The notes beneath the pieces are model-generated. The model made no database searches. It saw only the letters and a program-made list of their open reading frames with translations, and had not been told where the DNA came from. Shown piece by piece: positions 21,300-24,848 of a DNA stretch of 64,000 nt. Numbering within the stretch: the stretch's first letter is position 1; each line of letters starts with the position of its first letter. The translations under genes were made by a program, and so were the position numbers. The stretch lies in assembly GCF_013167455.1 (NCBI RefSeq), contig NZ_CP038328.1. One strand, 5' to 3'. Source of the stretch: Escherichia coli O157:H7 (GTDB taxonomy: Bacteria > Pseudomonadota > Gammaproteobacteria > Enterobacterales > Enterobacteriaceae).

Positions 21300-21404
21300 C
21301 GGTAACTCCTTTTGTCTGTGGTTTAAAGTATGGTAGTGCGTTGCTGAACAAAAAAAAAGCCGCTAACGAAAAGTTAGCGGCTTGTAAAAGAGTTTCCCTG
21401 AATT

Positions 21405-22907
21405 TTACGCTACGGCTGCTTTCGCCGCTTTGTCTGCAGCGTCATCCTGCGTCATGCGGTGCAGTTTCGGCGCGGTCAGCAGCATCAGTACTGCAATAAC
21501 GGCAGTAGCGACACCAATCTGCAAGAATACGCGACCATAGACTTCCAGTGACATCAGCGGATCGGTAACGTTATCCGGCACAGCCATCATACCCGCAACA
21601 TAACCACCAATCAGGTTTGCACCGGCAGTGGTCAGGAACCAGCTACCCATAATGAAGCCCATCAGACGCTGCGGAACGAGTTGTGCAACCATTGCCAGAC
21701 CCAGACCAGAGATCATCAGTTCCCCGATACTCTGCAGGCCATAGCTCGCGACCAGCCAGCTTACAGACACGATACCTGCGTCAGACGCGAATTTCGCACC
21801 CAGCGGCAGAATCAGGAACGCACCAGAACACATCACCATACCGATTGCAAACTTGGTTGGCATCGGCAGGGTATCGCCCATCTTGTTATAGATAGCGGCC
21901 AGAATCGGGCTACCAATGATGATCCAGAACGGGTTCAGTGCCTGATACTGCTCAGGTTCTACGGCCAGGCCCAGAATGGTATGTTCAACGTTACGAATCG
22001 CAAAGAAGTTCAGTGACGTTGGCATCTGGCTGTACAGCACGAAGAAGATAATGGCTTCGAGCATCAGGATGAAGGCAACGATCATTTTACGACGCGCAGC
22101 ACCTTTCATCGCGAAGGCTTCTTTACCGAAGATAACCACGATACCGAAGGCAACAACGCCCAGCGCCATACGCGCAACTTCCTGATTGTGCAGCAGCCAG
22201 GTGGCGATAGCGATCAGTGCCACAACACCAATAATGGTCAGCAGCAGGTTACGGTAGTTGATAGGCTCGAAGTCTGGTTTTGAACCGTACTGTTTAACCC
22301 AGCGTTGGCAGAAGGCGAAGTTAACGATAGTGATCAGCAGGCCTACAACGCTCAACGCAAACGCAACACTCCAGCCGTATTTCGCGGCCAGCCACGGGGT
22401 GGCGATCATAGAGAAGAAAGAGCCGATGTTGACGGACATGTAGTACATGGTGAATGCACCGTCCAGACGCGGGTCGTTTTTCTCATAGCATGTAGAAAGC
22501 AGAGAAGACGGGTTAGCTTTAAACAGGCCGTTACCGACCGCAATAGCCGCCATACCCATATAAACGATACCGGCGTCGTGACCAGACCAGGCAACCAGAG
22601 CATAACCAATCGCCAGCACAATAGCGCCGAGCATAATTACGCGTTTAGTACCCAGTACCTTGTCACCTAACCAGCCGCCGATAGCGACCAGACCATAAAC
22701 CAGGGCACTAAAGGAAGAGAAAAGGGTGATTGAATCCGCTTCAGACATACCCAGTTGTTTAACCAGGTAAACAGCCATAATTCCTTGTAGGCCGTAATAA
22801 CCAAAACGTTCCCATAACTCAATCGAGAAGATGAGATAGAACGCCTTCGGTTGTTTGAAAGCGTTCAAACTGACGCTTTCAGTTGGTTTTTGGTTTGCAG
22901 TGGACAC
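21405..22907 (-). CDS. dtpA: Proton-dependent di/tripeptide permease DtpA (TppB/YdgR), 500 aa
   Basis: ORF track 500 aa; POT/PTR2-family MFS transporter. Confidence 0.9.
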
Positions 22908-23491
22908 TTTTACCTCTTTTTTTACATCCCATATTAACGGGGGTGCTTTCTCGCGTTATGTCTAAAAAACATACGCGCAATTGTTATAGTGGGAGGGGAA
23001 ACGGCAGGTAATGTTCACTATCTTGCACTTTCAGACAAGTCCTTTGTAATAATCTGTTACATATAACTGAGGCGGGGAATTCAACCATTCCGGGAAATGT
23101 TATCCAGCGTTAAATTTTTCAAAAAACGTAACGGCAGATTTTTTCACTGCATTGAGAGGGGGATGATGGCTTGACGGCGATATGTTCTGCTATTTAGCGT
23201 TTTTCCTAGTGAGATAGTCCAGTTTCTTAAAAATAGCCAGTGTAATGTTTTGCAGGTCAATATTTGTTGCGTGTGTAAATTTAAATGATTTTAACCTGAT
23301 TCTTGCAATGTTTTTACATTGCCACAGCATCGTGATCTTGATCACTAATGAATAGAAAATTTCGCTATTAAAAAAACAATTAACCTGCATTTTTGGTTAT
23401 CCGCAAACGGATTACCTGATGATAACGCTAAGCAATGGCATCATTGACGTTAAAAAGATGTTTTAAAAGAGGATAAAGAAAGGTTATCAAT

Positions 23492-23520
23492 GGGGTAATC
23501 GGTGTTACCCCTTTTCTTCA
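23492..23520 (+). terminator. Terminator-like hairpin at nth 3' end; canonical only in plus-strand orientation
   Basis: GGGGTAA-TCGGTG-TTACCCC followed by TTTTCTTCA on the plus strand; overlaps nth stop (23518-23520). In the minus orientation the U-tract is not adjacent. Confidence 0.45.
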
Positions 23521-24153
23521 GATGTCAACTTTCTCTTTGTATTCACAAAGATCTTCAATAATACAAGAGCCACAGCGGGGCTTGCGGGCAATGCAGGTAT
23601 AACGCCCGTGCAGGATCAACCAATGGTGGCAGTCGACTTTAAACTCTGCCGGAACCACTTTCAGTAGCTTTTCTTCTACCTGTTCGACGTTTTTCCCCGG
23701 CGCAAATTGAGTACGATTACAAACGCGGAAAATGTGCGTGTCGACAGCAATAGTCGGCCAGCCGAATGCAGTGTTTAATACGACGTTGGCTGTTTTACGA
23801 CCTACGCCGGGCAGGGCTTCAAGCGCAGCACGATCTTCCGGAACCTCGCTATTATGCTGCTCCAGTAAGATACGGCAGGTTTTGATGATATTTTCTGCTT
23901 TGCTGTTATAAAGCCCAATCGTTTTGATATAGGTTTTCACCCCTTCAACGCCCAGTTCAAGCATCGCTGCAGGCGTATTCGCCACCGGGTAGAGTTTCGC
24001 CGTCGCCTTATTAACACTGACATCGGTTGCCTGAGCGGAAAGCAGTACGGCAATCAGCAATTCAAAAGGCGAACTGAAATTAAGCTCAGTGGTGGGATGA
24101 GGATTGTTCTCACGCAGGCGAGTGAGGATCTCCAGGCGTTTTGCTTTGTTCAT
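23518..24153 (-). CDS. nth: Endonuclease III (DNA glycosylase/AP lyase) Nth, 211 aa
   Basis: ORF track 211 aa; HhH motif and C-terminal 4Fe-4S Cys cluster (CIARKPRCGSCIIEDLC); start overlaps rsxE stop (TGATG). Confidence 0.9.
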   Translation of the reverse strand: MNKAKRLEILTRLRENNPHPTTELNFSSPFELLIAVLLSAQATDVSVNKATAKLYPVANTPAAMLELGVEGVKTYIKTIGLYNSKAENIIKTCRILLEQHNSEVPEDRAALEALPGVGRKTANVVLNTAFGWPTIAVDTHIFRVCNRTQFAPGKNVEQVEEKLLKVVPAEFKVDCHHWLILHGRYTCIARKPRCGSCIIEDLCEYKEKVDI

Positions 24154-24848
24154 CAGACATTCCCTGTTTCACCGTTTGGCAATGCACGTTCGGCAGCTGC
24201 TTCAGTACGGCGCTTTTTCATTCTTTCATCAATCAGGTATTTTCCTGCCAGCATCAGTCCCAGGCCAATAAATGCACCTGGTGGCAGCATCGCCAGCAGG
24301 AAAGGGGAGTCGGTGTGGAAAATCTCCACGCGTAATACTTTTGCCCAGCTACCTAACAGCGCATCTGCACCGTCAAACAATGTGCCATTGCCGATAATTT
24401 CGCGTAGTGAACCCAGCACGAACATGGCGCAGGTTGCGCCCATACCAATTGAAAAGCCGTCCAGTGCCGAAAGCGCCGGACCTTTTTTGGCAGCGAAGGC
24501 TTCAGCGCGGCCCACAACGATACAGTTAGTGACAATCAGCGGAATAAAAATCCCTAATGATTGATACAGGCCAAAGGCGTAGGCGTTGATCAGCATCTGT
24601 ACAGCGCTGACCACCGAGGCGATGATCATCACGTAAATGGGAATGCGGATCTCGGCTGGCGTCCAGTGACGCAGCGTCGAAATGGTCAGGTTGGTCAGCG
24701 TCAGTACCAGCGTAGTCGCAAGTCCTAAACCCAGAGCGTTAGTGGCAGTAGACGTGACAGCCAACAGAGGACAAAGGCCGAGCAACTGGACCAGCGCAGA
24801 GTTGTTTTTCCACAACCCCTGAACAATAACGTCTTTAATTTCGCTCAC
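24153..24848 (-). CDS. rsxE: Rsx/Rnf electron transport complex subunit RsxE, 231 aa
   Basis: ORF track 231 aa; polytopic membrane protein. Confidence 0.9.

Follow-up and report, generated by a model that had tools for sequence, protein, structure and literature searches.

A hairpin just past the nth stop codon in the nth-dtpA spacer of Escherichia coli, a probable 3'-end structure of the rsx-nth mRNA

The nth-dtpA spacer

In the 64-kb stretch of Escherichia coli O157:H7 DNA that was analysed as a whole (hereafter, the window), the minus-strand genes nth and dtpA are separated by a spacer of 610 bp (22908-23517) with a GC content of 36.9%, against 50.9% for the whole window. A previous sequence-only reading of this DNA had described an AT-rich region of about this length between the two genes, and that description is accurate. 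Across this region the window is 100% identical to E. coli CDC#03-98, and its orientation is inverted with respect to K-12. The spacer corresponds to K-12 NC_000913.3 1712159-1712768 with nine substitutions and no indels; thus K-12 coordinates are obtained as 1735676 minus the window position. No features are annotated in the spacer in either CDC#03-98 or K-12. The series of CDC#03-98 locus tags, which runs in steps of 5, skips RM34_RS23315 between dtpA (RS23310) and nth (RS23320), and a feature in the spacer may once have been called under this tag and later withdrawn. The genes and the elements discussed below are as follows.

21405-22907, minus strand: dtpA (gene call)
22908-23003, minus strand: dtpA 5' UTR of 96 nt, defined by the start site and including most of a highly conserved RBS-adjacent stretch (22905-22947)
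23003-23038, minus strand: dtpA core promoter, with predicted -35 TTGTCT (23033-23038) and -10 AACATT (23010-23015) elements
23020-23079, minus strand: OmpR ChIP-exo peak (PMC5438342 supplement; also conservation and the -201 to +15 fusion)
23092-23122, 23134-23149 and 23173-23198, no strand assigned: three blocks with 80-100% conservation across genera and fixed spacing
23305-23322, no strand assigned: small palindrome TGCAATG/CATTGCA with 7-bp arms, which holds TTTACATT (sequence and folding)
23331-23346, no strand assigned: CRP-type palindrome aGTGAtcaagaTCACg, centred near -337 relative to the single mapped dtpA start
23420-23491, minus strand: C-rich, G-poor, pyrimidine-rich tract, a candidate rut site, 3' of the hairpin on the nth sense strand (composition)
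23492-23511, minus strand: stem-loop GGGGUAAC ACCG AUUACCCC, 6 nt past the nth stop (folding and conservation)
23512-23517, minus strand: linker AGAAAA that separates the stop codon from the stem, source of the plus-strand UUUUCU tail; polymorphic
23518-23520, minus strand: nth stop codon (TGA), whose complement TCA closes the plus-strand T-rich run
23518-24153, minus strand: nth (gene call)

For comparison we collected 80 nth loci from Enterobacterales, 79 of which entered the hairpin analyses. The nth-dtpA synteny is kept in about 45 of the 80 loci, where the spacers are mostly 570-625 bp long (range 528-724) and always AT-rich (GC 33-45%). Judged from these sequences, such conservation of spacer length across some 45 species is unusual for non-coding DNA. 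A literature search for work linking nth and dtpA returned a single match, which is irrelevant, the DTPA in question being the chelator.

Conserved control elements upstream of dtpA

The dtpA start site lies at K-12 position 1712673, which is window position 23003, according to the supplement of a SMRT-Cappable-seq study. The OmpR ChIP-exo peak is centred at -46.5 from the dtpA start (PMC5438342), in exact agreement with a start at 23003. The assignment of the weak -10 element AACATT is consistent with an A-to-T change beside the dtpA -10 that arose in long-term stationary-phase evolution and raised the mRNA level about 23-fold (PMC7858067). A dtpA fusion carrying positions -201 to +15 alone was found to be strongly OmpR-dependent (PMC5175337). 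The sequence-only reading is right that dtpA is OmpR-regulated, and the gene is a direct OmpR target. The peak contains the sequence TTTGTAATAATCTGTTACATAT (23043-23064 in the plus-strand reading). This sequence resembles the F1 site of ompF.

The sequence-only reading also proposed an OmpR half-site inside the small palindrome, at 23311-23320. The motif in question, TTTACATT, is present, but at 23313-23320, approximately -310 from the dtpA start, and its role as an OmpR half-site is unsupported. It resembles the OmpR sites of ompF and ompC in that it matches a C1-type half-site of ompC and stands upstream of a direct OmpR target, but differs from them in lying off the mapped peak, in occurring at chance frequency (two copies in the window, with 2.4 expected) and in falling beyond the OmpR-responsive -201 to +15 fragment. 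The ChIP data, which had been suggested as a check, place OmpR occupancy at 23020-23079, about 250 bp from the motif. The arms of the palindrome are limited to 7 bp because the eighth position is unpaired (ACATTGCC where ACATTGCA would be needed), and across genera ATGT(A/T)AAA alone is conserved at 23305-23322, whereas the palindrome is not.

An alignment of 46 spacers shows several segments that Escherichia shares with Enterobacter, Cedecea and Buttiauxella. They are the RBS region (22905-22947), the core promoter with the start site (22980-23029), the OmpR and -35 region (23030-23072), the three blocks listed above, which lie between -90 and -195 relative to the dtpA start, and a far-upstream block at 23331-23389 that includes the CRP-type palindrome. 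This palindrome reads TGTGA-N6-TCAC in most genera, with the first half changed to aGTGA in this strain and to cGTGA in K-12. A CRP match of at least 8 out of 10 positions was found in 33 of the 46 loci, most of them with a spacing of 438-441 nt to the GTG of dtpA. The same K-12 sequence has been reported as a novel CRP site with a Kd of about 2.1 nM and assigned to dtpA in a January 2026 Footprint-seq preprint (PMC12871828, Table 1). A CRP site this far upstream may act by a distal promoter, by looping or by a divergent transcript. The conserved blocks and the fixed-distance CRP site suggest that the control of dtpA, for which regulation by OmpR is known, is far more elaborate than annotated, and this upstream architecture is a more promising lead than the hairpin described below.

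Several other candidate elements were considered in the spacer. A 66-aa ORF on the minus strand (23190-23390) is not retained in other genera. A plus-strand ORF beginning MLSSVKF... (ATG at 23097) recurs across loci; as it arises from the conserved DNA blocks we consider it spurious, and the third positions of its codons show no relaxation relative to the first and second; the variable site falls on a second position. A relaxed scan returned two extended -10-like motifs on the plus strand, TGtTATAGT (22982-22990), within a conserved stretch of the dtpA 5' UTR, and TGtAATAAT (23045-23053), within the OmpR site, either of which is a candidate divergent promoter facing nth. Finally, a sequence common to Escherichia and Citrobacter, CGaCAATGATGCC, lies about 75 nt past the nth stop in a stretch that otherwise evolves fast (window 23430-23455, minus strand AACGTCAATGATGCC).

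The hairpin on both strands and across genomes

The hairpin sequence GGGGTAATCGGTGTTACCCC (23492-23511) is directly followed by TTTTCTTCA (23512-23520), a T-rich run whose closing TCA is the nth stop codon read on the other strand. On the plus strand it folds into eight pairs, one of them U-G, with a 4-nt loop (-10.1 kcal/mol), and on the minus strand into seven pairs with a 6-nt loop (-9.0 kcal/mol). The plus strand has a U-rich tract, UUUUCUUCA, that abuts the GC-rich stem, with six U among the first eight tail bases. On the minus strand, which is the sense strand of nth, the tail is AUUGAUAACCUUUCUUU; its U-rich run is shifted by about 10 nt from the stem, and the first 9 nt past the stem (AUUGAUAAC) contain no U-rich tract within 8-9 nt. 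The folds and tails therefore bear out two points of the sequence-only reading, namely that the geometry of a canonical terminator exists on the plus strand only and that the U-tract is displaced in the minus orientation.

Both strands were evaluated with a terminator score that combines the hairpin energy per nucleotide with a weighted T-tail score. We used a form of the d'Aubenton-Carafa/Lesnik formula with modern energy parameters, so that the zero point of the score is approximate. The hairpin scores +1.4 on the plus strand and -51 on the minus strand. Fifteen sites in the window score zero or above, in comparison with 2.2 +/- 1.4 in block-wise dinucleotide shuffles, and such a site is present in about 5% of shuffled spacers; the motif is thus unlikely to be pure noise. 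Only one of the 15 scores lower, however, and the dtpA terminator (21359-21381), at 52, stands far above it. Elsewhere in the window, a hairpin between tyrS and pdxY (GGGGGAGTGA/TCACTCCCCC, 19744-19767) has T-rich runs on both sides and scores 7.7 as a minus-strand terminator, though both genes are on the plus strand; the SMRT-Cappable-seq table contains both tyrS-only and tyrS-pdxY transcripts.

A REP-like repeat was rejected as an explanation of the hairpin, its 20-mer being unique in the window at up to three mismatches, and no Rfam family matched 22000-24500 at E<=1. Wobble pairs point both ways as to the strand, favouring the plus strand here (one U-G) and the sense strand in locus L010 (one G-U).

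The position of the hairpin is conserved among Enterobacterales. In the 79 loci, 36-nt frames that start 0-6 nt past the nth stop have a median folding energy of about -10 kcal/mol, in comparison with about -3 kcal/mol in the rest of the spacer. In 57 of the 79 loci a hairpin with an energy of -6 kcal/mol or lower starts between -3 and +18 from the stop, and most loci have a stable hairpin 0-10 nt past the stop. The stems themselves show no sequence relationship, E. coli having GGGGTAAC, E. albertii TGGGTAA, Citrobacter GGGGCA, GGAGGA and GGGGCCA, Cedecea GCCCGG and Serratia GGGCGC. In an alignment of 12 close relatives, four of the five consensus pairs changed on both sides yet remained paired. 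Positional conservation and compensatory changes despite unrelated sequences argue that the hairpin structure is under selection, although the structure by itself is silent on which strand matters.

The flanks of the hairpin behave differently. The antisense tail scores above zero in two of the 57 hairpin loci, both E. coli-type, and the sense tail in one. The plus-strand T tract is missing from the other 55 loci and from E. albertii. In Citrobacter, which is the closest genus, the bases that replace AGAAAA are TGCTGCC, CAACAT or TACTGAT. The hairpin and the U tract are therefore not retained together in orthologous loci. Over all 57 loci the sense tails are richer in T than the antisense tails (1.13 vs 0.70, Wilcoxon p=0.03), with clear sense U tracts in a few of them (L022, L036, L041, L047 and L067).

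The linker is also polymorphic within E. coli, as determined from exact 80-mer matches among 5426 complete genomes. The form found in the window, TGA AGAAAA GGGG, is present in 3993 genomes (74%), the form TAA AGATCA GGGG in 946 (17%) and the form TAA TGATAA GGGG in 75 (1%), so that the nth stop codon varies together with the linker. In the variant loci that were read (L083-L085), the hairpin is unchanged and the sense sequence downstream of it is essentially unchanged, while the antisense tails become UGAUCUUUA or UUAUCAUUA, with scores of -38 and -24. The plus-strand T tract is thus lost in approximately 18% or more of E. coli genomes. The loss of the U tract in about a fifth of the species with the stem intact makes a functional plus-strand terminator unlikely. 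As far as the aligned sequences can tell, the tract is most likely an accident of an A-rich, non-conserved 6-nt linker.

The sense strand downstream of the hairpin has a distinctive composition. In 60-nt sense frames that start +10 to +30 past the nth stop, the mean C content is about 0.30-0.32 and the mean G content about 0.14-0.17, with C exceeding G in 98-100% of the 46 syntenic loci, which is the strongest skew in the spacer. The same frames in the window have 0.22-0.27 C and 0.05-0.08 G, and the frames that start in or just past the hairpin rank at the 91st-99th percentile of the 60-nt frames of the window on both strands. The opposite strand is correspondingly G-rich downstream of the hairpin. 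An excess of C over G suggests a rut site but is not specific to one.

Interpretation and related systems

The flanks of the hairpin, the E. coli polymorphism and the downstream composition together lead us to assign the hairpin to the nth sense strand. We consider it more likely than not that the hairpin defines and protects the 3' end of rsx-nth transcripts, an end produced by Rho termination followed by trimming. RNA polymerase would transcribe past the nth stop, and the untranslated C-rich, G-poor RNA downstream would let Rho load, with termination within the spacer. The RNA would then be trimmed back by 3'-to-5' exonucleases to the stem-loop, which would block them and leave a stable 3' end about 30 nt past the stop codon. 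Such an arrangement would also shield the dtpA promoter region from read-through. What we observe directly is the fold and how well it is conserved, the base composition next to it and the variation in the linker; the participation of Rho, the trimming and the actual 3' end we infer. Against this reading, the plus-strand fold is slightly better (eight pairs and -10.1 kcal/mol vs seven pairs and -9.0 kcal/mol), and an A-rich 5' flank of the stem is not typical of Rho-dependent ends (PMC6061677). The sequence-only reading had offered two alternatives, a terminator of the nth/rsx operon acting non-canonically or the end of an unannotated plus-strand transcript antisense to the dtpA leader. The comparative data fit the former, which is therefore to be preferred. 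The Adams 2021 Term-seq tables gave no match by gene name or coordinates in a search that had no power, as it also missed the strong dtpA terminator, and the TERMITe tables gave no match for the locus.

The alternative with a plus-strand transcript takes the hairpin and UUUUCUUCA as its true intrinsic terminator, at the nth stop. Such a transcript could begin close to the CRP site and measure about 90-140 nt, or begin at divergent promoter-like motifs by the dtpA promoter and measure about 460-520 nt; since the dtpA leader is only 96 nt long, an RNA antisense to it must start about 500 nt from the hairpin. The geometry that is canonical on the plus strand only, with an 8-bp stem, six U in eight and a score of +1.4, speaks for this alternative, as do the place of the site among seven plus-strand sites scoring zero or above in 64 kb (about two being expected for both strands together), the conserved high-affinity CRP site 150 bp away and the extended -10-like motifs at 22982-22990 and 23045-23053. 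The SMRT-Cappable-seq table has no start sites between K-12 positions 1705743 and 1712673; the table perhaps covers gene-containing transcripts only, and, as the data of one study, it might miss cAMP-dependent promoters. Likewise, a promoter scan at threshold found no plus-strand promoter in the spacer, a result that counts little because the scan also misses the real, weak dtpA promoter. Against these points, 55 of 57 loci lack the T tract, roughly 18% or more of the E. coli genomes have lost it although the hairpin is intact in the variants read, conservation is poor over the 110 nt that separate the CRP block from the hairpin, no Rfam family matches, and the score is among the two lowest of the 15. 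We regard a true plus-strand terminator as improbable. The proposal of a transcript antisense to the dtpA leader finds no support, its T tract being restricted to the two E. coli-type loci and lost in part of the E. coli genomes. A plus-strand small RNA gene is likewise unsupported, given the lack of Rfam matches at E<=1 and the poor conservation of 23391-23490, and nothing indicates a conserved plus-strand RNA.

Three further possibilities give the hairpin a partly different role. It might be a weak intrinsic terminator on the nth sense strand, assisted by NusA or NusG and independent of Rho. This agrees with the modest T-richness of the sense tails across genera, the clear U tracts in a few loci and a larger E. 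coli fold, with GAAGAAAA paired to UUUCUUU and AUCCUCUUUU coming after it; we nevertheless find it rather unlikely, as the E. coli tail is AUUGAUAAC with a score of -51, most loci are far below zero, and the conserved C>G tract would be given no role. Comparably doubtful is a dual use, whereby the conserved role is that of the nth-sense 3' end and the hairpin, in strains with the AGAAAA linker, also halts pervasive reverse-strand transcription out of the AT-rich spacer before this proceeds antisense through nth and rsx. The same structural evidence is compatible with it, AGAAAA is the majority allele (3993 of 5426 by exact match), and the spacer, at 37% GC, belongs to the AT-rich DNA that is prone to spurious promoters. 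However, nothing points to plus-strand transcription, the unconserved linker suggests little or no selection, and in any case Rho should terminate such untranslated RNA. Finally, there is a slim chance that in the AGAAAA allele the hairpin is bidirectional and ends a real plus-strand RNA, CRP-driven or originating from a divergent extended -10 promoter. If so, the dtpA control region would contain an RNA that is seen only at high cAMP and overlooked by standard annotations. On the reading that we prefer, a 3'-end structure of the rsx-nth mRNA, the AGAAAA linker would create no more than a weak terminator of the reverse strand, incidental and limited to some lineages of E. coli.

The locus illustrates how the look of a terminator on the wrong strand can arise from a few unconstrained linker bases, and how polymorphism within a species combined with comparison across genera can give a symmetric hairpin its strand without RNA data. 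With canonical intrinsic terminators it shares a GC-rich stem of 7-8 bp, a short loop and, on the plus strand, an abutting U-rich tail. In contrast to them, its gene-bearing strand lacks a U tract next to the stem, and no transcript is known from the strand with the tract; the tract is neither shared across species nor fixed in E. coli. In bidirectional terminators between convergent genes, a single hairpin has an A tract on one side that reads as a U tract on the opposite strand. The nth hairpin is likewise single, with an A tract at one side, but its flanking genes are co-directional and a T/U tract is present on one side only; true two-sided examples at this position occur in Enterobacter and relatives (L027, L034, L035 and L049).

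The closest known class is that described by Dar and Sorek in 2018 (PMC6061677), who found that the Rho-dependent transcripts of E. coli have precise steady-state 3' ends just past stable stem-loops without U-rich tails, with C-over-G enrichment downstream and the stem-loop guarding against PNPase and RNase II. The nth hairpin resembles this class in its stable stem-loop, its sense strand without a U-rich tail, the excess of C over G directly downstream and its position at the end of an operon. It differs in the A-rich 5' flank (AGAAAA) of this strain. That flank is absent from the AGATCA and TGATAA variants of E. coli and from most other genera, and as it is the polymorphic part we read it as incidental. 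The hairpin would thus add one unannotated operon-end structure to those known from genome-wide work in E. coli, and changes little in that picture.
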